DNA of 64,000 bases from Shigella phage ESh22: the sequence record ON528732. The stretch is one strand, 5' to 3'. The position numbers and the translations under genes are program-made. This document shows, one piece after another, positions 7,846-46,264 of the stretch. Position 1 is the stretch's first letter; the number at the start of each line of letters is the position of its first letter. A model generated the notes under the pieces. That model saw nothing but the letters and a program-made list of their open reading frames with translations. It ran no database searches and was not told where the DNA came from.

Positions 7846-8310
7846 ATGCAATTATCCCCTCAAGGATTGGAAGCTATCAAGTTCTTTGAGGGTCTTCGTT
7901 TAGAAGCCTACAAAGACTCTGCTGGTATTCCTACAATTGGTTATGGTACAATCCGTATCAATGGTCAACCTGTCAAGATGGGTATGAAAATCACTGAAGC
8001 CCAAGCTAACAGTTATCTACTTGCTGATGTTGAGAAGTTTGTAGTAGCTGTGAACAAAGCTATCAATGCTCCAACTACCCAGAATGAATTTGACGCACTG
8101 GTTATTGAAACCTACAACATCGGTATTGGGGCTATGAAGGAATCAACCTTCATGAAGCGTCACAATGCTGGTAACAAAGTTGGCTGTGCAGAAGCTATGC
8201 AGTGGTGGAATAAGGTAACCATCAACGGTCAGAAAGTTGCTTCTAAAGGTCTGACAAACAGACGTAGAATGGAAGCGAAGATTTATCTTGACGCGGTATA
8301 TCCAAAGTAA
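7846..8310 (+). CDS. endolysin, GH24 phage lysozyme
   Basis: 154 aa; FEGLRLEAYKDSAGIPTIGYG matches T4/lambda lysozyme catalytic region. Confidence 0.8.
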   Translation: MQLSPQGLEAIKFFEGLRLEAYKDSAGIPTIGYGTIRINGQPVKMGMKITEAQANSYLLADVEKFVVAVNKAINAPTTQNEFDALVIETYNIGIGAMKESTFMKRHNAGNKVGCAEAMQWWNKVTINGQKVASKGLTNRRRMEAKIYLDAVYPK

Positions 8311-8320
8311 TATATTCATA

Positions 8321-8345
8321 GGCTCCTTCGGGAGCCTTTTTTATT
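8321..8345 (+). terminator. rho-independent terminator
   Basis: Hairpin GGCTCCTTCGGGAGCC followed by TTTTTTATTTT. Confidence 0.65.
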
Positions 8346-8361
8346 TTCTAAGGAGAAAACT

Positions 8362-8760
8362 ATGAAACTTTGGGCTGATGATGTTGGTACTTTTAAGTAC
8401 ACAAGAAGCGGTATGAAGGTCAGAGTCTATGGAAGCAAACTTATCACTTACGGAGGTAAGGTTGTCACCAAGTTTATTGTTGAGGTCATTGAGCATTCAC
8501 CTATCACAATGGCTAACAAAGGGTTCTACACAAACGAACTTTATGACGTGAACGATGATGGCCTTTTCTGCTCTCTCGGTGAAAGTTCTTTAGATATTAT
8601 TTCAGAACACCACTTGACAAGAGAACAGTTATCAGGTTACTATAAAACTCTACTTGAGAAACAGAAAGCGATGCACAATCGTGAGGCTATTTACCACAAC
8701 GACCAGTGCAATAAACTTCTGGATAAGATTGAGAAAGCTGAGAGAGGTTATTATGAATAA
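8362..8760 (+). CDS. hypothetical protein
   Basis: 132 aa ORF with AAGGAGA RBS upstream. Confidence 0.5.
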   Translation: MKLWADDVGTFKYTRSGMKVRVYGSKLITYGGKVVTKFIVEVIEHSPITMANKGFYTNELYDVNDDGLFCSLGESSLDIISEHHLTREQLSGYYKTLLEKQKAMHNREAIYHNDQCNKLLDKIEKAERGYYE

Positions 8761-11968: not shown

Positions 11969-12178
11969 ATGATTAGAACACCTATCAAGCCTTTTGGCTT
12001 TAACTCTCTGGAAGAGTTCAAAGAATACCTTGAGAAAGGTTTCTATAATGAACAGCCAGTGACAGTAATTAAATCTGACTTGGTACAGCTTGTTGACATT
12101 GCTATTGCAGCAACTGAACCTAAGAAGAAAGAGAAAAAGGCTTCTTCAAAGAAAGATAAAGAATCTGTTGAAGAGTAA
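11969..12178 (+). CDS. hypothetical protein
   Basis: 69 aa ORF, lysine-rich C-terminus. Confidence 0.4.
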   Translation: MIRTPIKPFGFNSLEEFKEYLEKGFYNEQPVTVIKSDLVQLVDIAIAATEPKKKEKKASSKKDKESVEE

Positions 12179-12221
12179 TCTGTCAAGGGGTGTAAAAGCC
12201 CCTGTTTAGAGGTAGCGAAAA

Positions 12222-12665
12222 ATGAAACTGAAGAAATATGAAATTGTGTCTCTTGTCAATTATACAACAAGAGAGCGTGTAGCCCTAGGTACAGTCAGAG
12301 AAATTGACTACAGCCGTTACCCGTTTTCAATAGAACTTGCTAATGATTTCAAAATTGGAGAGGGTGATGATGAAATGTCTTTTAAGTGTGGAGAGATTAT
12401 CACTTTTAATAATGACTTTCTCTACAGAGGTGTAGCTCATGCTGACCATAAAAGCTTTGATATTCAAATTGCCAAGGTTAGTGACAAAGACTTAGGTAAG
12501 TCACCTACATATAATATTCTGCAAGAAGATTTTGAAAAAGAAATCGTAAAAATGTCTATTGAGATTGATAATGCACTAGAACCATTGCTTCCATACTTGA
12601 AATCTGGTAAGTTATCTACTCAAACCCTTTTAAACATTGTTAATGCAAAATTATCTAAAGGTTGA
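12222..12665 (+). CDS. hypothetical protein
   Basis: 147 aa ORF. Confidence 0.45.
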   Translation: MKLKKYEIVSLVNYTTRERVALGTVREIDYSRYPFSIELANDFKIGEGDDEMSFKCGEIITFNNDFLYRGVAHADHKSFDIQIAKVSDKDLGKSPTYNILQEDFEKEIVKMSIEIDNALEPLLPYLKSGKLSTQTLLNIVNAKLSKG

Positions 12666-15999: not shown

Positions 16000-16028
16000 A
16001 TAGTAGGGGCTTTGAAGCCCCTTGTCAA
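16000..16028 (-). promoter_or_regulatory. sigma70-like promoter with GC palindrome in spacer
   Basis: Minus strand TTGACA, 17-nt spacer AGGGGCTTCAAAGCCCC, TACTAT, followed by conserved leader with GGAGA RBS. Confidence 0.55.
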
Positions 16029-16797: not shown

Positions 16798-16848
16798 CTT
16801 TGAAGTCTCCAGTTTAGGATTGTTGGTAAAGCTCTTTATCTGGGGCTT

Positions 16849-16877
16849 ATCTTATCGAACTATAAACCCCATGTAAA
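16849..16877 (-). promoter_or_regulatory. sigma70-like promoter, TTTACA-N17-TAAGAT, palindrome-containing spacer
   Basis: Minus strand TTTACA..GGGG..CCCC..TAAGAT upstream of conserved leader for gene 16270..16797. Confidence 0.5.
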
Positions 16878-16883
16878 GCACTT

Positions 16884-17081
16884 TTAGTAAATCTCATCAA
16901 ATAAATTATTGATTGCAAAAATAGCATTTTCTTTGAATCCTTGGCTATTGCTATCATCACAAAACATAACTTTACCATTGTATGTGATTTTTAATGATAC
17001 CTTTGAACCTTCAACATTCAAAGAATAAGATACACCTTTTAAACACCACAAAGTAGAAAGTTTTTGCATCAATGATAACAT
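16884..17081 (-). CDS. hypothetical early protein
   Basis: 65 aa ORF preceded by conserved leader. Confidence 0.45.
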   Translation of the reverse strand: MLSLMQKLSTLWCLKGVSYSLNVEGSKVSLKITYNGKVMFCDDSNSQGFKENAIFAINNLFDEIY

Positions 17082-17841: not shown

Positions 17842-17991
17842 TTACTTAATACGGTTTACAATAGATTTTTTCTTTAAATGTAGTTTTTCTGCTTTTTTCA
17901 TGGTTTTTACTAGTAACATCATGATAAATGAGAAAATCATCTCTGAGAATACAGGGTTGTTAAAAACTGTCTCAATAGTATGCGTCATCAT
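17842..17991 (-). CDS. small hydrophobic peptide (about 49 aa)
   Basis: ATG directly after conserved leader at 17991-18012. Confidence 0.3.
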   Translation of the reverse strand: MMTHTIETVFNNPVFSEMIFSFIMMLLVKTMKKAEKLHLKKKSIVNRIK

Positions 17992-18065
17992 TTGAATCTC
18001 CAGTTTAGGAAAGCTCTTTATCTGGGGCTTATAGTAGCAAGGTTTAAAGCCCCATGTAAAGTACT

Positions 18066-18923: not shown

Positions 18924-19010
18924 TTTATAATCTCCAGTTTAGGATTATTGGGGCTTGCTTGCCCGTTGATGAGTACTTTAATATATCTAAAAATCAGTGT
19001 CAAACGTTTT

Positions 19011-19412: not shown

Positions 19413-19498
19413 TTTTGAATCTCCAGTTTAGGTTATTGGGTAAATCTCTTTATCTGGGGCTATCTTATCAACCTGATAACCCCATGTAAAGCAATTTA

Positions 19499-20476: not shown

Positions 20477-20560
20477 TTTAGATACTCCAGTTTAGGATTG
20501 TTGGTAAAGCTCTTTATCTGGGGCTATCTTATCAGCCTGATAACCCCATGTAAAGTACTT

Positions 20561-21073
20561 TTAGATATTAAAGATATTCATCACACTATCTTTTAAATCT
20601 TCCAAGCGCTCTAAAACTTCCTCTTCAGCACCTGAATTACTCACTTCCTCTTTTAAGCGTGAATCTAAATCTTCCCCGTCAAGATAGCACCAATCGAAAC
20701 CATACGCAAGAGAAAAACTATTTAGAACCGTGTTCCCTTCTGAGTCAATCACTGAGGCGTATAGAATGTAGCTATTTGCCCCTAAATCCCTTTCTAGTTC
20801 ATCTTGTAAGCTCTTGTAAGCGGCTAATGATGGGTTATCCCTTCCCTGTTTTGCGTAATCACTGGCAAGCTGTGAAAGCGCATAGTGCATAGGAATTGCA
20901 TATTTGTAGCCGTTACGTTCTGAGTTTTTAACTTTGATTGTAACTCCTCCTTTATGCTCATCAGTGAATTGCCAGTTATCCACACAATGGGAAGGCTCAT
21001 AAACATTCATTGCTTCAAAGATGATAGTAAATTTTTCTTTTTGAACTTCAAAGGTGCTTTCGACTGATTTCAT
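20561..21073 (-). CDS. hypothetical early protein, acidic C-terminus
   Basis: 170 aa ORF preceded by conserved leader. Confidence 0.5.
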   Translation of the reverse strand: MKSVESTFEVQKEKFTIIFEAMNVYEPSHCVDNWQFTDEHKGGVTIKVKNSERNGYKYAIPMHYALSQLASDYAKQGRDNPSLAAYKSLQDELERDLGANSYILYASVIDSEGNTVLNSFSLAYGFDWCYLDGEDLDSRLKEEVSNSGAEEEVLERLEDLKDSVMNIFNI

Positions 21074-21159
21074 TTTTTGAATTTCCAGTTTAGGATTGTT
21101 GGTAAAGCTCTTTATCTGGGGCTTATACTATCGACTTATAAACCCCATGTAAAGTACTT

Positions 21160-21417
21160 TTAGATTAAATTGCCAATTAATGCTAAGTGCATTTTGTAAC
21201 CCTGTTTTGTAAACACGTTAGTGTTACCGATAGTTTTTACACCTTTAAACATATTGCAAGAGCTATGTTTGAGAGTTAATTTTTTGTCTGTCTTTACGCC
21301 CCATCTTACAGCAGAATCTTTTCCGTTGTCAACCACTTTACCATTTAATTTTTTAGCAGTTGCACGAGCATCATCACGGGATTTTGCAGTAATTACGATG
21401 TTTTTAATGGTAGCCAT
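21160..21417 (-). CDS. hypothetical early protein
   Basis: 85 aa ORF preceded by conserved leader. Confidence 0.5.
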   Translation of the reverse strand: MATIKNIVITAKSRDDARATAKKLNGKVVDNGKDSAVRWGVKTDKKLTLKHSSCNMFKGVKTIGNTNVFTKQGYKMHLALIGNLI

Positions 21418-21504
21418 TTTTAGAATCTCCAGTTTAGGTTAGTGATAAAATTCTTTATCTGGGGCTTATACTAGCAACTCATAAACCCCATGTAAAGCAC
21501 TTTA

Positions 21505-21888: not shown

Positions 21889-21976
21889 TTTAGATTCTCC
21901 AGTTTAGGATTGTTTAGTGATAAAGTTCTTTATCTGGGGCTTAAGATACTACCTTTTAAACCCCATGTGAAGCACT

Positions 21977-22357: not shown

Positions 22358-22544
22358 TTTAGAATCTCCAGTTTAGGATTGTTGGGATTGCTTCCCGTTG
22401 ATGCAAATACTATAAGACTGGTTTTTTAGAGTCAAGCAAATTTTTAAAAATATTTTTGGCATGTTGTGAATGAAACGGGCGCGTACACATAGCACTAAAC
22501 AGAAAACTAGTCAAGAATTATTTTTTAATCCGCTACAAATTTTT

Positions 22545-22800
22545 CTCTTGACTTTTGGGAGGAAGGGGAGTAAGAGGGGGTGGTGGGGCTGGCTGGCTAT
22601 ATCTGGCTACCTGCACAAATTGAAAATGAATTTTCTTGCCCGACCTGATTTTTCTCTGCACAATTTTGAAATGAAAAAGCTCTTTGGAGTTCACCTGCAC
22701 AAATTGAAAATGAATTTTCCCTTTGGAGTTGACTTTGATTTCACTCTACAGATTTCTTTATAGACCTTTATCTGCACGATTTTGAAATGAAAAAGCCCTC
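22545..22800. repeat. G-rich tract followed by four copies of a 22-26 bp iteron-like repeat
   Basis: CCTGCACAAATTGAAAATGAATTTTC at 22610-22635 and 22697-22722; related CTGCACAATTTTGAAATGAAAAAGC at 22647-22673 and 22771-22797. Confidence 0.6.
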
Positions 22801-22862
22801 CTTACCTTGTGTTTGCAAGAACAAGAAAGGCTTACTCTATTGTGAATACTTTACAAAGTTAC

Positions 22863-25357: not shown

Positions 25358-25383
25358 TGAAAAAGGCTCCCGAAGGAGCCTCT
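25358..25383 (-). terminator. rho-independent terminator
   Basis: Minus-strand hairpin GAGGCTCCTTCGGGAGCC followed by TTTTT. Confidence 0.6.
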
Positions 25384-27090: not shown

Positions 27091-27151
27091 TGGGTCTCCT
27101 ATTTTGTTAAACATGCAGACAATTATACACCATCCTGCACATTTTTCAAAT

Positions 27152-27176
27152 AAAAAAGGCTGCCGAAGCAGCCCTT
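27152..27176 (-). terminator. rho-independent terminator after rIIB-like gene
   Basis: Minus-strand hairpin GGGCTGCTTCGGCAGCC followed by TTTTTTATTT. Confidence 0.6.
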
Positions 27177-27191
27177 TAGGATTCTTACTAA

Positions 27192-28301
27192 TTAAACTTC
27201 ACGTTTACGCTGAGAAATCAGTTCACCAGCAGTACCTACAACTACGTGTAGTGCTTCTGAACCATCCCACTCTTTAACAACTTCACGACGGCCATTCACG
27301 ATTGCTGCTACTTCATAACGGGAAGCTCGCATTTTCATATCTTGGTAATCAGTTGGTACTGATACAACATCTCGTGGGTGTACACGAACTTTCAGGATGG
27401 TATCTCCAGAGAAGCTTGTTACATAATCCCAAGCACCAACATGAAGACCCTGAGAGCAAGTTACGTTACGGTTATTATCAACCATCCAACGTGGCATCTC
27501 TACAATGTTACCCAAATCATTAGGAACCTTGCAAGTACGAGAGTCAAACAGTTTACCACCACGGCTAGTTACTTTCTTCCAACCAATAATGTAACCTTCT
27601 TCGTCAATCTCAACGTCAAGATGTGATACGAATCCCCAAAGTTGTTCTACAGAATCTTTGGATGGGTTCTCCATCAGCTTCTCGAAGAACGCTAATAGAT
27701 GGGTAAATCCTTCATCACCATTCTTCATCATGGTCAGGATACGGTCTACCAGAGTTGAACGCATCTGAACAGCACCGTAGTACAGGTTATCACCCTTGAT
27801 AGTGATAGCACCCTGAGTGAAGTTCTCAATAGACTTACGGATATTCATAAGGTCAAATGCTTTCTTGTACTCACCTGAAACGACTGCTACTTTGATTTCT
27901 GCAAAGTTTGGATGAGTTGATTCAACAATCTCAGACTCTGCACCGAAAGTCATGATAACAGAATCACCAGTAATCATGTACTCAATCTTGCTGTTACTTT
28001 GCATTGCATCATGTAGAGCATTTACTGGTTCGGCTTTGACTTCTTCTTTCTTAACAGCTTTTACAACAGTAGTCTTGGAAGTTGCTTTCTTAGAAGTCTT
28101 AGCAGCTTTTGCAATAGACTTCAGAGTTTTGGCTAGTTTAGCTGGAGCCTTATCCAGAGTTGCTTGGTGACGTTCTACAGCACGACCAACAGAACGAGTT
28201 GAAGTTTTGTAACGATTTGCAATGGCAGTCTTGGTCAGTTTACCTTCCATTACCAGTGCATAGATTTCTGCGTCGATTTGTGCTTTAGTTTTAGTAGTCA
28301 T
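27192..28301 (-). CDS. rIIB: rIIB-like protein
   Basis: 369 aa; lies immediately downstream of the rIIA-like gene in the T4-type order; no motif-level support of its own. Confidence 0.45.
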   Translation of the reverse strand: MTTKTKAQIDAEIYALVMEGKLTKTAIANRYKTSTRSVGRAVERHQATLDKAPAKLAKTLKSIAKAAKTSKKATSKTTVVKAVKKEEVKAEPVNALHDAMQSNSKIEYMITGDSVIMTFGAESEIVESTHPNFAEIKVAVVSGEYKKAFDLMNIRKSIENFTQGAITIKGDNLYYGAVQMRSTLVDRILTMMKNGDEGFTHLLAFFEKLMENPSKDSVEQLWGFVSHLDVEIDEEGYIIGWKKVTSRGGKLFDSRTCKVPNDLGNIVEMPRWMVDNNRNVTCSQGLHVGAWDYVTSFSGDTILKVRVHPRDVVSVPTDYQDMKMRASRYEVAAIVNGRREVVKEWDGSEALHVVVGTAGELISQRKREV

Positions 28302-28336: not shown

Positions 28337-28365
28337 ATTCTAAGGGGCTTTTCAGCCCCTGTCAA
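28337..28365 (-). promoter_or_regulatory. sigma70-like promoter TTGACA-N17-TAGAAT with GGGGCTGAAAAGCCCC palindrome in the spacer
   Basis: Minus strand TTGACA, AGGGGCTGAAAAGCCCCT, TAGAAT about 30 nt upstream of rIIB-like start. Confidence 0.5.
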
Positions 28366-28371
28366 ACTCTT

Positions 28372-30741
28372 TTAAGACCAAGAATTAGTATCTTCTGGGA
28401 TGTGCTTAACATCAAACCCTAAGAACTTACCAACCTCAACAGGTGATACTTTATTCCAGTCTAAGTTAGAAAGCAAGAAGTTTTCTGTGCGACGATGCTC
28501 AAAATACTTCTCAATTTTCCTTTTAAGACGGCTCTTAGCTTTGTCAAGAGACTGTCTCATCTTAGTCTTAGGCCGCATTGCTTTACGTAAGGACTCCAGA
28601 ACACTGCTAGTACCCTCATAAGCAATAGTCCCAGCAGAGTAAGCCAAACGTCCAAACATTGCTTCTACAGCGTCTTCGTTACCTTCTAAGAACATCGTAA
28701 ATTTGATATCCTTGGAGTAAACATAACCTTTAGACTTCTTCTTATTATTAAACGTAAATTCACGAGAAATAATATGTTTATCAGTCAGGTCACACTTATT
28801 TGCAGCCCACTGGTAAATCATGTGACGATGGTAATCTACCCAATGAGAACTGTCAACATAATCTTTGAAGACTTGTTCAGTTACTTCAATCCAGTCTTCC
28901 GGTACTTTCTTCCAGTTTGCTTTACGGAAGACATACACAGACTGCCCAGTTAACTCTGTCACGAGTTTAGCAGCAGTCTCTGGAGAACATGAGAACAAGC
29001 CACCAATTACTTCATCACTTTGTGCTTTGATGTAAAGTTGTGGTTCTTCAATCTCATCAAAGTTCTCTTTAACTTCTGAGTAACCTACTTGGTCATCATT
29101 GAAGACAAAAGCTTTGTAGAGTTTAACAACTCCACGAGTAATTGTACGTTTCTCGTAATGGTGCTCTTTAGATGACATATTGTGAACACTTAGCAGACTC
29201 TTATCAAGCATGTGTAGCGTTACAAACGCATCAAATTGTTCCTGACTGTTAAACAGGAATGCAATACCATTGTAGCGACGGAAGTTTGACTCTTCTTGTT
29301 CACGGTCACGGCAAGCACCACGAATAATCTGATTCTTACCAGTTGTCTTTTCAGTACCATTCTTGTTTCGACGGTCATTGATAAGGAACAGGTAATTGCT
29401 CAACTTATCTTTACTCATTGCACCGAAGATACTAAACATTGCAGAGTCTTGTGTATGCGTGGCTGAAGTTGCACGAATACGATTCTCAAGACTGCTGTAT
29501 TTGTAGTATGCAACAGGTTCATACAAGTTACCGATATTAGGAACCTGATTACCATCTTTGTCAAGACGGAAGTTACCATTCTCATCTTTTAAGAAGGATG
29601 GTGAACCATCAGTCTCAGCCAATTGACCACGGCGAATACCCAAAAGTTTACGTTCAAGGTCTGCTAAGTTCTGACCTTGCCACTCTAACTTATCATTAAC
29701 GTGATAGAATATTTCACGAGCATTCTTCCTCATATCATCATAAGCTTGTGCAGCGTCAATCAACGTGGGTTTGTCTGCAACCTCTTTAATAACATCCTCA
29801 ACAATAGTTGAAGTAATCTTTTTAACTGCTTCAACAATTTTGTTTTTGGTAGTGTCGTTCATCTGCAATGCTTCACGAGATGCAGCAATAGCCACTGAAC
29901 CAATCGGCATGTAGATGTTTACAAGGTCTACAGAACTACGGAAGAACTGAGGCAGAACCGTTGTAAATTCTGAACCAAGTAATTCACCCATTTCAACAGG
30001 GTATGCAATATTCCCCATTACAACGTTGAAGTGAACACTGTTATTGTTTGAGCGCCAACCCTCTTTGTATTTCATTGCATCATAAACACCATCTTCACGA
30101 GAGATTGAAGTCATTGCTGCAAGAATATCGAAGAACTCAATGTTGCAATCTGGTTTAACTTTAAAGTATGAGAATACATTACTTGCTTCTTCTTGGAACT
30201 TAGAAATGCGACTCTCAGAGACTGCTACTCGAACTGCTAAACCATTTGGTTCAGTTGTTGGGTTAGTAGTCAGTTTAGTAACTTGAGGAATACCATTCTC
30301 AAGATATACAGAGTACTTGTTAACAACACCATCAACGTAGCTTGATACAGTGAATGATTGAGCAATTGCAAACGGTGACTTTGAACCGATACCCATAGCA
30401 CCGATGTAGTCATTTGAGTCATTCTTTGTTGACTCTCCGTAGGTCATGTAAAGTTTCATTACTTTATCATGGGTCAATCCAGTACCAAAGTCTCGAACTT
30501 CAAAGTACGGCTCAAAACGAGTTGGTAAGTGAACCAAGAAAGGTTTATCACTATTACCTGAATCAATGTGAGCATCTACTGCGTTACAGGATAACTCACG
30601 AATTACAGCACGTTCTTTGTAGGTGTATACACCAGAACTCAGAAGACTAAACATTTCAGGTGTCATCTTAATCTGAGCTTGAGAAGTTTCTAAAGTGTCT
30701 GAACTTTTGATAATCTCTGCGTGGTCATTTACCATACGCAT
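28372..30741 (-). CDS. rIIA: rIIA-like protein with N-terminal GHKL ATPase domain
   Basis: 789 aa; GHKL N-box RELSCNAVDAH, G1 RDFGTGL, G2 IGAMGIGSKSPF, recalled as matching T4 rIIA N-terminus. Confidence 0.65.
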   Translation of the reverse strand: MRMVNDHAEIIKSSDTLETSQAQIKMTPEMFSLLSSGVYTYKERAVIRELSCNAVDAHIDSGNSDKPFLVHLPTRFEPYFEVRDFGTGLTHDKVMKLYMTYGESTKNDSNDYIGAMGIGSKSPFAIAQSFTVSSYVDGVVNKYSVYLENGIPQVTKLTTNPTTEPNGLAVRVAVSESRISKFQEEASNVFSYFKVKPDCNIEFFDILAAMTSISREDGVYDAMKYKEGWRSNNNSVHFNVVMGNIAYPVEMGELLGSEFTTVLPQFFRSSVDLVNIYMPIGSVAIAASREALQMNDTTKNKIVEAVKKITSTIVEDVIKEVADKPTLIDAAQAYDDMRKNAREIFYHVNDKLEWQGQNLADLERKLLGIRRGQLAETDGSPSFLKDENGNFRLDKDGNQVPNIGNLYEPVAYYKYSSLENRIRATSATHTQDSAMFSIFGAMSKDKLSNYLFLINDRRNKNGTEKTTGKNQIIRGACRDREQEESNFRRYNGIAFLFNSQEQFDAFVTLHMLDKSLLSVHNMSSKEHHYEKRTITRGVVKLYKAFVFNDDQVGYSEVKENFDEIEEPQLYIKAQSDEVIGGLFSCSPETAAKLVTELTGQSVYVFRKANWKKVPEDWIEVTEQVFKDYVDSSHWVDYHRHMIYQWAANKCDLTDKHIISREFTFNNKKKSKGYVYSKDIKFTMFLEGNEDAVEAMFGRLAYSAGTIAYEGTSSVLESLRKAMRPKTKMRQSLDKAKSRLKRKIEKYFEHRRTENFLLSNLDWNKVSPVEVGKFLGFDVKHIPEDTNSWS

Positions 30742-30804
30742 AACAGGATTCCTCTTTGTTGTTTGGTGAGGTAACTATATTCTTTTATAGATACCTCTGT
30801 CAAG

Positions 30805-31316: not shown

Positions 31317-31342
31317 TTAAAAAGGCTCCCGTAGGAGCCTCT
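31317..31342 (-). terminator. rho-independent terminator after NAMPT-like gene
   Basis: Minus-strand hairpin GGCTCCTACGGGAGCC followed by TTTTT. Confidence 0.6.
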
Positions 31343-31354
31343 TATAATACTCAG

Positions 31355-33181
31355 TTAGAGTTGTTTGTCAATGTTATTTCGAACATCACGAAGGTTTACA
31401 TAACCATATGGTTGAGAGTTGCTAAACACCAACTTCAAAGCACATTCTGGATTATCCAGTACACCTTCAAACTCTGCAAAGCCAAAGCCGTCTACAGCTT
31501 CCAGTTTATCACCGTCACACATAGGAACTACACCACCAAAAGCAGACTTCTTAAGACCACTGTCAGTTTTAGGGTCTTTTGCCAGCATGATTTCTTCACC
31601 GTCCATCTGAGCAAGAGTAGCCTTGACAGCAAATGCAAAGGTATCACGAGTCAGGTACTGGTAAGTGTATGAACCAACACCAAAGACCACGTTAGAGCTT
31701 GCAAAACCTTTGTCAGCAAGACGACCAAGAATCTCATTAGCTCGCTCAAGGGTGATAGAATCACCATAGATTAAACCGATGTGCTCATCCAGTACTTTGT
31801 AACCTTTACTGTTCACACGACCACCAAAGATGTTGTAGAGAGTTGGGATAGCCCCATCAATCTCTGCTGTCAGCATACGCTTAACAACAATATTTCCGGT
31901 CTTATTAAAATCTTTCAAGTTAACTGTTTCAGCAGTTTCAAAATCTTCTTTATCAACAACTAACTCATAACCTTCAGAGATAAGCCATGCAGCAAACCCA
32001 TAACCCATATCCTGCAACTCACAATACTGAATAAGATTCAGGAGTTTATCATTGTTCGGTGCAATTTCTTTCATATGTTTGTAGAACATACTCTTGGCAT
32101 TTTCCCACTCAACAGCACGATAACCAGCAACAATGTGAATGGGGTCTCCAGAGTCTGGACGTATTACCAGTTTACCTTCACGCTTCAGGATAACTTCACG
32201 GAGTTCTGGGAGAATCTCTGTAACAGTACGCCAGAAGTTGTAAGTATCTGAAACAACACTTGCAATACCAGTTGGATATACGTCTACCAGTAAATGCTCA
32301 AAGGTTTTAACCTCACCACGCCAACGTTTTGCATCCAGCAAGCTATCAGACTGCATGATGTACTGTGAATGAATATCTTCCTCTGACAAGTCTTTCATAT
32401 TCCATGAAATGTTTGCGCACATCACAGAGTGTTCAGTAGCTGGTACAGAGTTGCCGATATCACTTACTTCCATAAACTGACCATAAGCACGTTTAGCAGT
32501 GTAGACAGCAGGGAAGCTGTCAGTACCTTTAAAGCTTGTCAGGTGACCTACAGCGTTAAAAGCATCATCTGTAAAGCCTGACATACCACGCATTGCAAAA
32601 TCATGACACTGCCAAGGTAAATGGAAGTCATTATCACAGGTTACATCAGCCCATTGCTTACAGATGCGTTTGTAGTGTAATGCAATAGTGGCAATCGTAG
32701 AAGCTTTCCAAATTTCAGCAGAGAAAGCATCTTCCAGATATCCAGCTACCCAATGGAAGCCCTCTACAGTATTCTTGAAGATAATCATTGGAACACGCAT
32801 TGGAACCACTGTACCCTCTTCTACAGAGTAGACTTCGACTGGCAGATAGCCTAAATCGTGAAGTTCTTCCCAATGCTCACGACCAATCGCATCTGCACCG
32901 AGAACACCGTTCATGATTTCTAAGATTTCGTCAACAACTTCTTTCTTATCTCGTTCAAAGAAGGTAGCATTCCAGTGGTCTACTAAGTAATCTTTAACGA
33001 AACGTTGAATACCAAAAGCAACTACACCGTCAATATCAAGTGGAGTGTTAAACCACTTATCACCACGAGGTGTAAGATTTAGCATCAGATACTGTGTAGC
33101 ACTTGGGTACTGGTAGATATGGCCAGCTTTGTAAGCATCCGCATTAAGACCTGCTGGTACTGCATAAACTGATTTAGACAT
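31355..33181 (-). CDS. NAMPT-family phosphoribosyltransferase homologue; candidate Namat of a NARP1-type NAD+ reconstitution pathway, or canonical NadV
   Basis: Track ORF starts at TTG 33223; ATG at 33181 preferred. Aligns by eye to NAMPT blocks: DAYKAGHIYQYP, HDFAMRGMS...SFKGTDS, SVPATEHS, SVVSDTYN, IRPDSGDP, YGDS. Confidence 0.7.
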   Translation of the reverse strand: MSKSVYAVPAGLNADAYKAGHIYQYPSATQYLMLNLTPRGDKWFNTPLDIDGVVAFGIQRFVKDYLVDHWNATFFERDKKEVVDEILEIMNGVLGADAIGREHWEELHDLGYLPVEVYSVEEGTVVPMRVPMIIFKNTVEGFHWVAGYLEDAFSAEIWKASTIATIALHYKRICKQWADVTCDNDFHLPWQCHDFAMRGMSGFTDDAFNAVGHLTSFKGTDSFPAVYTAKRAYGQFMEVSDIGNSVPATEHSVMCANISWNMKDLSEEDIHSQYIMQSDSLLDAKRWRGEVKTFEHLLVDVYPTGIASVVSDTYNFWRTVTEILPELREVILKREGKLVIRPDSGDPIHIVAGYRAVEWENAKSMFYKHMKEIAPNNDKLLNLIQYCELQDMGYGFAAWLISEGYELVVDKEDFETAETVNLKDFNKTGNIVVKRMLTAEIDGAIPTLYNIFGGRVNSKGYKVLDEHIGLIYGDSITLERANEILGRLADKGFASSNVVFGVGSYTYQYLTRDTFAFAVKATLAQMDGEEIMLAKDPKTDSGLKKSAFGGVVPMCDGDKLEAVDGFGFAEFEGVLDNPECALKLVFSNSQPYGYVNLRDVRNNIDKQL

Positions 33182-33229
33182 AATTTTATCTCTCTCAATA
33201 GTGGGGCTTTTCAGCCCCTTCAAAGTTTA

Positions 33230-34111
33230 TTACTCAATGTTTGCTACAGTTACTTGTGAGAACTGATTCAGACCACGGTCTTCAGCATCCCCTAGCGAGT
33301 TTGTAGTGTAGATATGGTCAATGCCATTGTCAAGAAGATTTTCAACACCTTTTGAGAAAATCCCATGAGTTACATAAAGTTCTACACGGCTTGCACCAGC
33401 TTCACGAAGATGTTTTGCAGCTTCTACAAAGGTACGACCACCATCACAGATATCATCGAGAATCATGACAGCTTTACCAGTTAAGTCTACATCATCAAGG
33501 ATTCGCATACCAGTGATTTCACCAGTTTTCAGATTACGAATCTTAGCCATTGTGATATATGGCTTATCAACCTCTTTAGCAGCCTCTTCAGTCTTCTTGG
33601 CTGCACCTGCATCTGGAGCCACTAAGAAATCAATACGTGGGTCACTTGCAAAGTGTACTGCTGCTTCTTTCTGGGGCAGGTTATGGAAGCACTTAAACAA
33701 GTTCTCTGCTACGTTGCTGTGAGTATCTAAAGCACATACTGCATCAAACTCCATAGCATTTACCAGATTTGCAAAGACTTTCAATGCTGCTGCATCACCT
33801 TTAAACATGTGACGGTCATAACGAGCATTTGGTAAGAAGCCAAATACAGCAGTCTTCATAGTTGATTTCTGAGGAATTAGTTTGTCAATAGCTTCTTTCG
33901 CCAGAGCTAAAGCAAACAGAGTATCTTTGTCGTAACCCTGTACAGTGAGGATTACATTCTCAATCTGGGAAGCATTCTGTTCAGCATAGGCTACTAGGTC
34001 TTCTGAGAAGTTACCACCAATTTCTCCAGACGGAAACTGGATAATGTTGAACTCTTCTTGGTGAGCACCTTTTTTACGTGAGTGTAACAGTACACTAATA
34101 ATAGTTTTCAT
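33230..34111 (-). CDS. ribose-phosphate pyrophosphokinase (Prs) homologue; candidate Adps of a NARP1-type pathway
   Basis: 293 aa; PRPP-binding-type motif ILDDICDGGRT and VAPDAGAAKK; directly upstream of the NAMPT-like gene on the same strand. Confidence 0.65.
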   Translation of the reverse strand: MKTIISVLLHSRKKGAHQEEFNIIQFPSGEIGGNFSEDLVAYAEQNASQIENVILTVQGYDKDTLFALALAKEAIDKLIPQKSTMKTAVFGFLPNARYDRHMFKGDAAALKVFANLVNAMEFDAVCALDTHSNVAENLFKCFHNLPQKEAAVHFASDPRIDFLVAPDAGAAKKTEEAAKEVDKPYITMAKIRNLKTGEITGMRILDDVDLTGKAVMILDDICDGGRTFVEAAKHLREAGASRVELYVTHGIFSKGVENLLDNGIDHIYTTNSLGDAEDRGLNQFSQVTVANIE

Positions 34112-37251: not shown

Positions 37252-37265
37252 TTTATTCTCTCCAA

Positions 37266-37304
37266 TAAAAAAGGTAGTGCAAGCCTATCAAGACCTACAC
37301 TACC
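37266..37304 (-). terminator. rho-independent terminator after nrdD
   Basis: Minus-strand hairpin GGTAGTG...CACTACC followed by TTTTTT. Confidence 0.55.
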
Positions 37305-37315
37305 TTGTCAATTAC

Positions 37316-45226: not shown

Positions 45227-45731
45227 GATTTTCTCTCTCGTTAAGCTTCATGATTTTGTTAATACGTTTCTCAGCTTCTTCATAAGTTTCTTTTGTAAGG
45301 AACTTGATAGCTGCAATATTGGCATTGTAGAAGAGTCTGAGTTTCGAGTCAATCCTTTTTGTCATAACATCGAACTTATGTTGGAGATTTGCTTCTCCGT
45401 AGACTAATCCACCTCGTGTATAATAGGTTTGCACAATGTAGAAGTCAAACTCTTTCATACCAAAAGCTTCAATATCTTTCTTAATGTACTCAGAAGAAGT
45501 CTGGTAAACCATCCAGTCACTCTCTTTGGTGACAACCTTACGTCTGGTCTTTCCAGCAACCTTCTTCTTAGTGATACTATTGAACTGTTTTTTACCCAAA
45601 TAGTACTGACCAGTCTTTTTGCAGTAGACTAGATAAACGAAGCCAAAGTACTTTGCAGGGTCAATTTCACCACATAATGATACCCAATGTCCGTAAGTAG
45701 GGCAATTACCAAAACCTTTAATCTTTATCAT
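45219..45731 (-). CDS. GIY-YIG-like homing endonuclease (tentative)
   Basis: 170 aa; FVYLVY...GQYYLGKK resembles GIY-YIG motif. Confidence 0.35.
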   Translation of the reverse strand: MIKIKGFGNCPTYGHWVSLCGEIDPAKYFGFVYLVYCKKTGQYYLGKKQFNSITKKKVAGKTRRKVVTKESDWMVYQTSSEYIKKDIEAFGMKEFDFYIVQTYYTRGGLVYGEANLQHKFDVMTKRIDSKLRLFYNANIAAIKFLTKETYEEAEKRINKIMKLNERENHV

Positions 45732-46264
45732 TCATAAGTTTCTCCGTGATTTGCAAACTCTCTATGGAGTTCTTCTCTTTTCTTTCTAACAACATTTTCA
45801 GCCTCAGCTACAGAATCAAACAGTCCGAGGTGATAGCAAACTTTATTATGTTTAACCTGCGCAACCCATCTGCATCTTTGCTTGTGGTAATAGACACCCT
45901 TCACACCAGACTTGTTGTCTTTCCTCTTAGTTGCGTTGCAGTTATTATCTGACCTGCTGCACTCTCTTAAATTGTCGAACCAGTTTTCGTGCCTAATACC
46001 GTTCTTATGGTCAACTAATTTAGGTAGGTAACCTTTTATGTATAAAAATGCTAACCTGTGTGCTGCGTACCTTTTACCAAAAAGTTTTATATAAACATAG
46101 CCGCTATGGTGTTTAACTCCAGCTACAGAGCCAGCTTTAGCCTTACCAGTTCTATCTACTAACCAAGTAAAGACCCCTGTTTCGGGGTCATAGTGTAGGT
46201 ATTCTTTAAGAATCTGCTGAGTTAACATTTGGTGTCCACCCATACTTATCAAAAGTGAAATCAT
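45728..46264 (-). CDS. HNH homing endonuclease with AP2 DNA-binding domain
   Basis: 178 aa; VDHKNGIRHENWFDNLRECSRSDNNCN plus AP2-like SGVKGVYYHKQRCRWVAQV; start may be a downstream ATG. Confidence 0.6.
   Translation of the reverse strand: MISLLISMGGHQMLTQQILKEYLHYDPETGVFTWLVDRTGKAKAGSVAGVKHHSGYVYIKLFGKRYAAHRLAFLYIKGYLPKLVDHKNGIRHENWFDNLRECSRSDNNCNATKRKDNKSGVKGVYYHKQRCRWVAQVKHNKVCYHLGLFDSVAEAENVVRKKREELHREFANHGETYE

Follow-up and report, generated by a model that had tools for sequence, protein, structure and literature searches.

The rIIA and rIIB genes of Shigella phage ESh22 follow one another closely on the minus strand, and the spacer between them holds a palindrome placed between the two hexamers of a predicted promoter. 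What does a hairpin-forming sequence do inside a promoter, and is it peculiar to this spacer? We analyzed a stretch of 64,000 nucleotides of the phage genome (sequence record ON528732), called the window here, together with related sequences. The window belongs to the genus Mooglevirus (Ounavirinae, Felix O1-like). In the 7.2 kb around the rIIB element, it is 99.9% identical to Shigella phage ESh21 and 80-85% identical to other Felix O1-like phages. The features of the window are listed in Table 1.

Table 1. Positions of genes, promoter and hairpin elements, cassettes and insertions in the window
Feature	Position	Strand	Remarks
rIIA	30741..28372	minus	
rIIB	28301..27192	minus	
Prs-like gene	34111..33230	minus	
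NAMPT-like gene	33181..31355	minus	
rIIB -35 hexamer TTGACA	28360..28365	minus	TTGACA in 28 of 29 related loci, TTGACT in 1; present in Felix O1
rIIB hairpin AGGGGCU-GAAA-AGCCCCU	28343..28360	minus	7-bp stem, GAAA loop, -12.9 kcal/mol; fills the promoter spacer
rIIB -10 hexamer TAGAAT	28337..28342	minus	TAGAAT or TAAAAT in 29 of 29 orthologues
Palindrome identical to the rIIB copy, Prs-like/NAMPT-like spacer	33203..33218	minus	Hairpin only, no credible promoter
Compact promoter/hairpin of a small early gene, TTGACA-AGGGGCTTCAAAGCCCC-TACTAT	16000..16028	minus	Palindrome at 16006-16021
Type-A cassette, TTTACA-17-TAAGAT within hairpin GGGGTTTAT...ATAAGCCCC	16798..16883	minus	Followed by leader, SD and ATG
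Type-A cassette, TTTACA-18-TACTAT	17992..18065	minus	Adjoins 49-aa ORFan missing from ESh21
Type-A cassette, arms GGGGTTATC/GATAGCCCC	19413..19498	minus	
Type-A cassette, arms GGGGTTATC/GATAGCCCC	20477..20560	minus	RNA fold -26.8 kcal/mol, z -4.6
Type-A cassette	21074..21159	minus	RNA fold -25.5 kcal/mol, z -5.4; adjoins 85-aa ORFan missing from ESh21
Type-A cassette	21418..21504	minus	In ESh21 joined directly to the gene starting at 21073
Type-A cassette, TTCACA-17-TATCTT	21889..21976	minus	
rIIA promoter TTGACA-18-TATAGT	30774..30803	minus	Arm GAGGTA after -35, arm TACCTC after -10; P = 0.025 vs shuffles
Promoter TTGACA-18-TAGGCT in long hairpin with T-run	37252..37315	minus	True terminator; P < 0.001 vs shuffles
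Insertion, ORFan and cassette	16884-17081		65 aa; no Pfam match
Insertion, ORFan and cassette	17842-17991		49 aa; no Pfam match
Insertion, ORFan and cassette	21160-21417		85 aa; no Pfam match
Insertion, HNH_3/AP2 homing-endonuclease gene	45736-46236		Fourth insertion

The promoter and hairpin in front of rIIB

On the minus strand, the spacer between rIIA and rIIB reads TAA-aagagt-TTGACA-GGGGCTGAAAAGCCCCT-TAGAAT-...-ATG. The hexamers in the segment from 28365 to 28337 agree with the sigma-70 consensus in 11 of 12 bases and stand 17 nt apart, and 16 of the 17 spacer nucleotides are taken up by the palindrome GGGGCT-N4-AGCCCC (28344-28359). This confirmed an earlier reading of the window, made from the sequence alone, that the palindrome occupies the spacer of a TTGACA/TAGAAT promoter upstream of rIIB. 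The promoter begins 6 nt past the rIIA stop codon, and 35 nt separate the end of the -10 hexamer from the rIIB ATG. The stem grows to 7 bp by pairing of the A of TTGACA with the T preceding TAGAAT, and the -10 hexamer starts 1 nt past the palindrome, where a terminator would have its U-tract. The 30 nt upstream of the hairpin, with the -35 hexamer included, contain 70-73% A+T compared with a genome average of 61%, a modest enrichment.

We then compared 30 loci from IMG/VR that have a gene for an rIIB relative. Of these, 29 share the arrangement TTGAC(A/T), 0-1 nt, GGGGCT-loop-AGCCCC, T and TA(G/A)AAT, with a spacer of 17 nt in the Moogle-like loci and 18 nt in the Felix-like loci. The stem was identical in 27 of the 29 orthologues, and the other two carried a stem-breaking G>A change (AACCCC); the loop was GAAA, GCAA, TTGA or TCAA. 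While the -35 and -10 hexamers were kept across genera, the 20-30 nt between the -10 hexamer and the ribosome-binding site diverged between groups. Felix O1 itself has the arrangement at 2293-2371, a site that carries no annotation. In the locus most remote from the window (56% rIIB identity), the hexamers are TTGACA-17-TCTAAT, and an unrelated hairpin, AGTGGTC-TAATAA-GGCCACT, overlaps the -10 hexamer. In front of rIIB, a predicted promoter and the hairpin in its spacer are thus conserved together, and the observation is real and well outside what chance would give.

Further copies of the palindrome and the small-gene cassettes

When GGGGCT-N4-AGCCCC was counted across the window, three copies were found (28344-28359, 33203-33218 and 16006-16021), compared with 0.00 expected from 100 shuffles. 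The recurrence of the palindrome therefore held, but only two of the three copies lie in a promoter spacer. The exception is the copy before the NAMPT-like gene. It is identical to the rIIB copy, as had been claimed, and starts one base below the position given for it (33204-33219); the proposal that it, too, sits in a promoter spacer had to be dropped. This copy lies between the stop codon of the Prs-like gene (33230) and the ATG of the NAMPT-like gene (33181), and it is flanked by TTGAAG and TATTGA, the latter a -10 without its final T. Neither hexamer was present at the corresponding site in four Felix-like loci; in three of these, ATTTTG comes after a retained hairpin, and in the fourth (L035) the stem is degraded. 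We rejected a promoter for the NAMPT copy because of the poor -10 sequence and the missing hexamers in the relatives. Since the relatives retain the hairpin without -35 and -10, the NAMPT element consists of a hairpin alone. The stem is not under absolute selection, because two rIIB orthologues carry the G>A stem break and one NAMPT orthologue has the degraded stem.

The third copy had been placed at 16007-16022 and is actually at 16006-16021. Its compact promoter and hairpin sit within a cassette (16032-15958) that ends in the common leader ...aatcctaaactGGAGattctaaaaATG. Both the 5' 'agta' of this cassette and its leader, ...(a)atcctaaactGGAGattctaaaaATG, which covers the SD and start codon region, are common to the small-gene cassettes described below. 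By these features, the cassette at 16032-15958 is a short-hairpin variant of the small-gene cassette family.

The complete ESh21 genome likewise has three copies of the pattern, one in front of rIIB, one in front of the NAMPT-like gene and one between two tail-fibre genes. The tail-fibre copy, AGGGGCTGTGTAGCCCCT, has no -35 hexamer; no promoter is present there, and the genes are late. The ESh21 orthologue of the 16006 site has kept its promoter (TTGACA-17-TACTTT) with a weakened stem, GGGGCA...AGCCCC (AGGGGC/GCCCCT). Counting this weakened one, ESh21 has four copies, each of them in a short spacer between genes that run in the same direction and 6-12 nt past a stop codon; a promoter overlaps two of these copies.

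When 2.9 million viral contigs were searched for exact matches to TTGACA-N(0-1)-GGGGCT-N4-AGCCCC, 30 stretches were obtained. Almost all came from Felix O1-like contigs of ~87 kb, with a single match each, at rIIB. Two uncultured contigs, L046 and L057, carry TTGACA-A-GGGGCT-GCAA/GTGA-AGCCCC-TACAAT/TATAAT and have no detectable similarity to the window. Neither blastn nor tblastn against cultured phages found relatives of these two contigs, no protein similarity to the window was seen, and their only PHROGs matches were HNH endonucleases.

The sequence-only reading had further claimed that a related palindrome is carried by the small-gene promoters. This was correct for the compact element at 16028..16000; the other seven have a related but longer hairpin that spans the -10 hexamer. 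The minus-strand small-gene spacers between 15.9 and 22.0 kb are copies of a cassette of ~85 nt with the pattern TAA-(a)agtaC-TTTACA-t-GGGG(T/C)TTAT...-TAnnnT-AAGCCCC-AGATAAAGAGCTTTAcc...aatcctaaactGGAGattctaaaa-ATG. Seven copies of this form, called type A, lie between 16.8 and 22.0 kb of the window, where the 14-mer AGCCCCAGATAAAG has seven exact matches compared with 0.39 expected; relatives have up to 10 type-A copies per fetched stretch. In a second form, called type B (agtactcatcaac-GGGG...CCCC-...cctaaactggag), the hairpin is kept and the promoter is lost.

Among 86 unique type-A copies, 85 have TTTACA as the -35 hexamer, 83 have a 17-nt spacer, and all have a -10 hexamer of the form TAnnnT. 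The 9-bp type-A stem is formed by pairing of the spacer with the sequence just past the -10 hexamer, and it overlaps the hexamer by 2-3 nt in 78 of the 86 copies. The arms covary with these last 2-3 nt of the -10 hexamer (GGGGCTTAA/TTAAGCCCC, GGGGTTATC/GATAGCCCC, GGGGTTTAT/ATAAGCCCC and GGGGCTTAT/GTAAGCCCC). In many copies, a T stands opposite a G, which gives G.U in RNA of the sense strand and C.A on the other strand. The RNA fold of the full type-A cassette encloses the -35 hexamer as well.

Pairing was counted in a MAFFT alignment of 49 sequences with a three-helix structure of 20 pairs. In this alignment, 94.1% of the cells were paired, a figure that understates pairing at two inner pairs because one cassette class is 1 nt out of register (paired deletion), compared with 31-59% when the partners were slid by 1-3 columns. 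Double-sided changes were found in 19 cells compared with 7.9 +/- 2.2 in shuffles, and none of 500 shuffles reached 19. In the outer helix the covarying pairs were GC/UA, and in the inner helix they were UA/AU/UG. No variation occurs at 12 of the 20 pairs, which are therefore uninformative either way.

The cassettes also mark most of the places at which the window and ESh21 differ by an insertion. The window has four insertions relative to ESh21, and three of the four consist of one small ORFan and one cassette. Since the upstream cassette of ESh21 runs straight into the downstream gene, the junction of the 21160-21417 insertion can be placed in the SD/ATG part of the cassette.

Termination, attenuation and alternative readings

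The promoter hairpin lies just past a stop codon, and canonical terminators of the window are sited there as well. Those at 25362-25383, 27154-27177 and 31320-31343 resemble the promoter hairpins in their GC-rich 6-7-bp stem, tetraloop and stability; the promoter-embedded hairpins have -11 to -13 kcal/mol, compared with -9 to -13 kcal/mol in the window's seven short canonical terminators. The loops, however, are UUCG or UACG in the canonical terminators and GAAA or UCAA in the promoter hairpins, and only the latter are directly followed by a -10 hexamer. The 8-nt tails of the promoter-embedded hairpins contain 2-3 T (2 T after the rIIB stem and 1 T in the type-A copies), whereas those measured in the canonical terminators contain 4-7 T. 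A terminator scan of the window left the promoter-embedded hairpins uncalled, and they are therefore not canonical intrinsic terminators. With no scan call and a T-poor tail, canonical intrinsic (Rho-independent) termination was ruled out. An Rfam scan of the whole window returned tRNAs only, and the element fell below the gathering score of every curated family. Searches of the literature found no transcript-end data or transcriptome for Felix O1-like phages.

The geometry of the element indicates which RNA could contain the hairpin. With a predicted start site ~7 nt past the -10 hexamer, transcripts made from the promoter itself would have their 5' ends past the hairpin or within its 3' arm. 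Since the hairpin lies upstream of this predicted start, it should be foldable only in RNA that reads through from the preceding gene.

The same geometry was found at promoters with unrelated arm sequences. Besides the rIIA promoter and the promoter at 37252..37315, whose 16-pair hairpin has its 5' arm within the spacer and its 3' arm past the -10 hexamer, the layout is present at promoters 27149, 4954 and ~48242. Their 5' arms begin 0 to -1 nt from the -35 hexamer. When the non-hexamer bases of each promoter were shuffled, a hairpin abutting the -35 hexamer was supported in 9 of 18 strong intergenic promoter candidates (P <= 0.026, the value for the promoter at ~48242 being approximate). Within the 18 candidates, no hairpin was found at the promoters among the tRNA genes (1970, 3363, 3454 and 5490) or at promoter 22435, which has no gene close upstream but 400 nt of non-coding DNA. 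The placement of an arm at the -35 hexamer in many independent promoters suggests functional coupling with initiation, not mere proximity.

We conclude that the element is probably a composite early-promoter/stem-loop cassette of the PeSL (promoter-early stem-loop) type in a Felix O1-like phage. Host sigma-70 RNA polymerase would start rIIB transcription ~7 nt downstream of TAGAAT, so that the promoter's own transcripts would be free of the hairpin. Read-through RNA from rIIA would carry AGGGGCU-GAAA-AGCCCCU, and the hairpin would attenuate or end transcription, or at least fix a stable 3' end. The -10 region would stand in for the U-tract, and a polymerase at the overlapping promoter may aid as a roadblock. 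If the hairpin ends read-through and the promoter restarts transcription, each gene would be insulated and independently promoted in minimal space. The small-gene cassettes of ~85 nt would repeat this promoter/hairpin design, and the NAMPT copy would be a hairpin-only remnant. Because the cassettes are conserved, we also propose that they serve as crossover points for the gain and loss of small ORFans. Alongside the architecture, conservation, arm covariation and cassette-bounded indels found here, we infer promoter activity, termination or attenuation, and a roadblock effect.

A dual promoter/attenuator role was one of two functions proposed in the sequence-only reading, and it fits the present results: the -35 and -10 hexamers are conserved while the flanks drift, the hairpin is as stable as the terminators of the genome, it would be present only in read-through RNA, and the layout is that of experimentally tested PeSLs (PMC2839356).

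On the other hand, the hairpins may act in RNA processing or stability without terminating transcription. They could protect the 3' ends of upstream mRNAs or, in the ~57-nt three-helix type-A form, serve as RNase III-type sites as in T7, and the overlap with promoters would then reflect genome economy only. The missing U-tract is in keeping with such a role, as are the stable GNRA-type GAAA loop of the compact hairpin, the interrupted type-A helix of ~21 bp (-25 to -27 kcal/mol), in which the outer helix covaries too, and the promoter-less palindrome between the late tail-fibre genes of ESh21. A 7-bp stem, however, is too short for RNase III. The position of the 5' arm, 0 to -1 nt from the -35 hexamer in many independent promoters, also argues against this explanation, and a comparable PeSL stem-loop cut downstream lacZ expression as much as the rrnB T1 terminator did (PMC2839356). 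We therefore consider a processing or stability role unlikely.

The other function proposed in the sequence-only reading was a common regulator-binding site. As a duplex-DNA operator, GGGGCT-N4-AGCCCC would be bound by a dimeric regulator of the phage or the host, which would shut off the early promoters and act as a roadblock at the promoter-less copies. A perfect 16-bp palindrome exactly between -35 and -10 is in the classic position for a repressor. The half-sites are invariant in Felixounavirus, Mooglevirus and the two unrelated uncultured contigs, with the central 4 bp free to vary; the compact stem GGGGCT/AGCCCC thus shows no covariation, and such invariance is equally expected of a sequence-specific binding site. 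A precedent is a terminator palindrome that doubles as a LexA site (bioRxiv 10.64898/2026.08.19.745784). The related type-A cassettes, however, preserve pairing and not sequence, and their T.G wobbles, which pair on the sense strand only, are mismatches in duplex symmetry. Unrelated arms have the same geometry at other promoters of the window, the palindrome also occurs without a promoter (at the NAMPT-like gene and between the ESh21 tail-fibre genes), and only two of the four ESh21 copies overlap a promoter. No candidate regulator was identified. A common regulator-binding site was thus left unsupported, and we regard the operator as improbable.

It is about as improbable that the spacer hairpin, which has no U-tract, is a conditional terminator, one that would stop read-through only when the promoter is occupied by the sigma-70 holoenzyme or by a regulator bound to the half-sites. 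If so, promoter occupancy would be mechanically coupled to upstream termination, and a whole set of early units could be turned by the phage from 'insulated' to 'read-through' mode, or back, in the course of infection. On this reading, the short cassette also appears to move between unrelated phages (L046 and L057).

Least probable is a cruciform or hairpin acting in DNA with no RNA role, as a supercoiling-sensitive promoter or mainly as a hotspot of recombination or template switching. The loop does flip between TTGA and TCAA, exact reverse complements, repeatedly among close relatives and with no intermediates, which implies intrastrand pairing or arm-to-arm DNA exchange at least as a mutational event, and the indel junctions between relatives do fall in cassettes. 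However, a palindrome of 18 bp around a 4-nt centre is on the short side for extruding a stable cruciform in vivo, the readable junction (gene 21160-21417) is in the SD/ATG part and outside the hairpin, and wobble pairs on the sense strand only point to RNA.

Relation to known systems

The papers on Felix O1, wV8, AYO145A, UAB_Phi87 and Bas63 describe few or generic promoters and no promoter-embedded hairpins; the phiEa21-4 genome paper is outside this scope. The element is of a known, PeSL-like kind for which we found no earlier description in Felix O1-like phages, and it is unsurprising to specialists in phage transcription. The Felix O1 genome paper left unexplained how, and when, transcription passes its many terminators (PMC3185647). 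The cassettes offer a concrete and testable map of early promoters and insulators for Felix O1-like phages, a group widely used in typing and biocontrol of Salmonella, E. coli and Shigella, and they would help in annotating these phages. For engineering, they would provide natural insertion and deletion points and, as predicted, strong portable promoters. They would also be a compact natural example of physically coupled promoters and terminators, and with them neither PeSL-type cassettes nor the small-gene shuffling that such cassettes mediate would be confined to the T4-like phages.

The RNase III hairpins of the T7 early genes resemble the type-A cassettes only. Both are intergenic, interrupted hairpins of ~55-60 nt in early polycistronic RNA. 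The T7 sites, however, are without promoters, and the compact 18-nt hairpin is too short for such sites.

Bacterial terminators often overlap the next promoter, and promoter-bound polymerase raises termination (Fletcher, ..., Grainger, bioRxiv 10.64898/2026.08.19.745784). The rIIB element resembles these promoter-coupled terminators in its place in a tandem-gene spacer, in having the hairpin and the next promoter on the same DNA, and in a palindrome that could double as a transcription-factor site. In the bacterial cases, a mapped 3' end lies within 35 bp (peak ~10 bp) upstream of a mapped start on the same strand; the rIIB geometry would put a 3' end ~5-8 nt upstream of the predicted start, with no T-tract. 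The bacterial motif has its stem-loop at -35 and a T-tract in the spacer, whereas the Felix O1-like stem-loop occupies the spacer or extends across the -10 hexamer. By analogy, promoter-coupled termination could plausibly explain how a U-poor hairpin ends transcription, and it also leaves room for the operator idea.

The closest likeness is to the PeSLs of the T4-like phages RB49/phi1, PST/T4 and nt-1/KVP40 (Arbiol et al. 2010, PMC2839356; Comeau et al. 2014, PMC4122927). A PeSL consists of a sigma-70-like early promoter, AT-rich sequence upstream of it and, at the 3' end, an SD and ATG, and in RB49/phi1 its G(n)-loop-C(n) stem-loop lies mostly between -35 and -10 or over -10. PeSLs cluster among ORFans in hyperplastic regions, degraded 'half' copies occur, and the motifs bound indels (PMC2839356; PMC4122927). 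Their promoter and terminator activities were shown by lacZ fusions (PMC2839356; PMC4122927), and mini-circles are described for them, whereas the activities of the Felix O1-like elements are predicted here from sequence. The two also differ in that PeSLs were described in T4-like myoviruses, whereas the present elements belong to an Ounavirinae (Felix O1-like) genome of ~86 kb; because the phage lineage differs, the name PeSL denotes the kind of element and not descent from the T4-like copies. The consensus here is TTTACA/TTGACA with GGGG(C/T)T...AGCCCC, and the long form encloses the whole promoter in three helices. Apart from AT-richness, which is modest, all of the sequence-level features of PeSLs were found in the present elements: sigma-70-like -35 and -10 hexamers with a spacer of ~17 nt, a G(n)-loop-C(n) stem-loop in the spacer or over the -10 hexamer, an SD and ATG at the 3' end, multiple copies among small ORFans, half-copies, and indels bounded by cassettes.

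Overlaps of promoter and hairpin in other geometries

We noted several further features besides the rIIB element, in which the GGGGCT-N4-AGCCCC palindrome fills the promoter spacer; their positions are collected in the table.

Coordinates of the features noted
Feature	Location	Strand	Remarks
Hairpin-only relative AGGGGTGTAAAAGCCCCT	window 12186-12203	plus	
Promoter TTGACA-17-TAAAGT and type-B hairpin GGGCAAGCAAGCCCC	window 18924-19010	minus	
Non-coding region, 505 nt	window 22358-22862		precedes small-gene block
rIIB hairpin loop	window 28349-28354		orthologues in L008-L030
Promoter-like site TTGACA-16-TATTAT and canonical terminator	window 31320-31371	minus	
Homing-endonuclease ORF, 178 aa, HNH_3 and AP2	window 45728-46264	minus	
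Palindrome, fourth copy AGGGGCTGTGTAGCCCCT	ESh21 record (L177) 69542-69557		outside window
Compact element	L046 4094-4116; L057 7545-7567		uncultured phage contigs from IMG/VR (87 and 61 kb)

The promoter-like site with a TATTAT -10 overlaps the NAMPT stop codon. Since its -10 ends 3 nt upstream of the terminator hairpin AGGCTCC-TACG-GGAGCCT, which is followed by TTTTTAATTT, a start site would lie inside the 5' arm of the terminator. The site is a further predicted overlap of promoter and terminator, with a geometry unlike the others. At the type-B hairpin (the cassette form that has lost its promoter), a promoter is predicted upstream, so the hairpin would fall in that promoter's own 5' UTR, and the order of promoter and hairpin would be the reverse of that elsewhere.

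The palindrome copy in the related phage ESh21 occupies a 45-nt spacer between two tail-fibre genes, with neither a -35 nor a T-run. The hairpin-only relative, flanked by plus-strand genes (11969-12178 and 12222-12665), is on the other strand, and both a T-run and credible hexamers are absent there.

Repeats, an insertion and the compact element

The non-coding region, whose conserved counterpart in Felix O1 is 7916-8422, contains four exact minus-strand copies of TTCATTT(T)CAA..GTGCAG (22611-22791) and the C-rich tract ccagccagccccaccaccccctcttactccccttcctccc. Past the rIIB terminator, a fifth copy (27135-27154), which has a single mismatch, overlaps the promoter TTGAAA-16-TATAAT. The non-coding region could belong to a second class of promoters, serve as a regulator site or be an origin.

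The homing-endonuclease ORF explains an insertion of 500 nt that ESh21 lacks. Of the four indels between the two phages, this one alone has no cassette borders.

Two uncultured contigs, L046 and L057, carry the same compact element, TTGACA-A-GGGGCT-N4-AGCCCC-TACAAT/TATAAT, with hexamers near consensus. They have no similarity to the window at the DNA or protein level, and their tested stretches had no match in cultured phages. The element could be a small regulatory cassette that spread horizontally, or a case of convergence.

Two states of the rIIB hairpin loop in Felix-like phages

Felix-like relatives carry one of two 4-nt loops, TTGA or TCAA, each the exact reverse complement of the other. 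Near-identical flanks carry either state, and a neighbour-joining tree built from 1.8 kb of flanks at 27 loci requires at least eight changes of loop state. The intermediates TTAA and TCGA were never found among the Felix-like loops compared. The switching appears to reflect repeated inversion of the loop by way of the palindrome. Loop inversion at small hairpins is known in plastid DNA.
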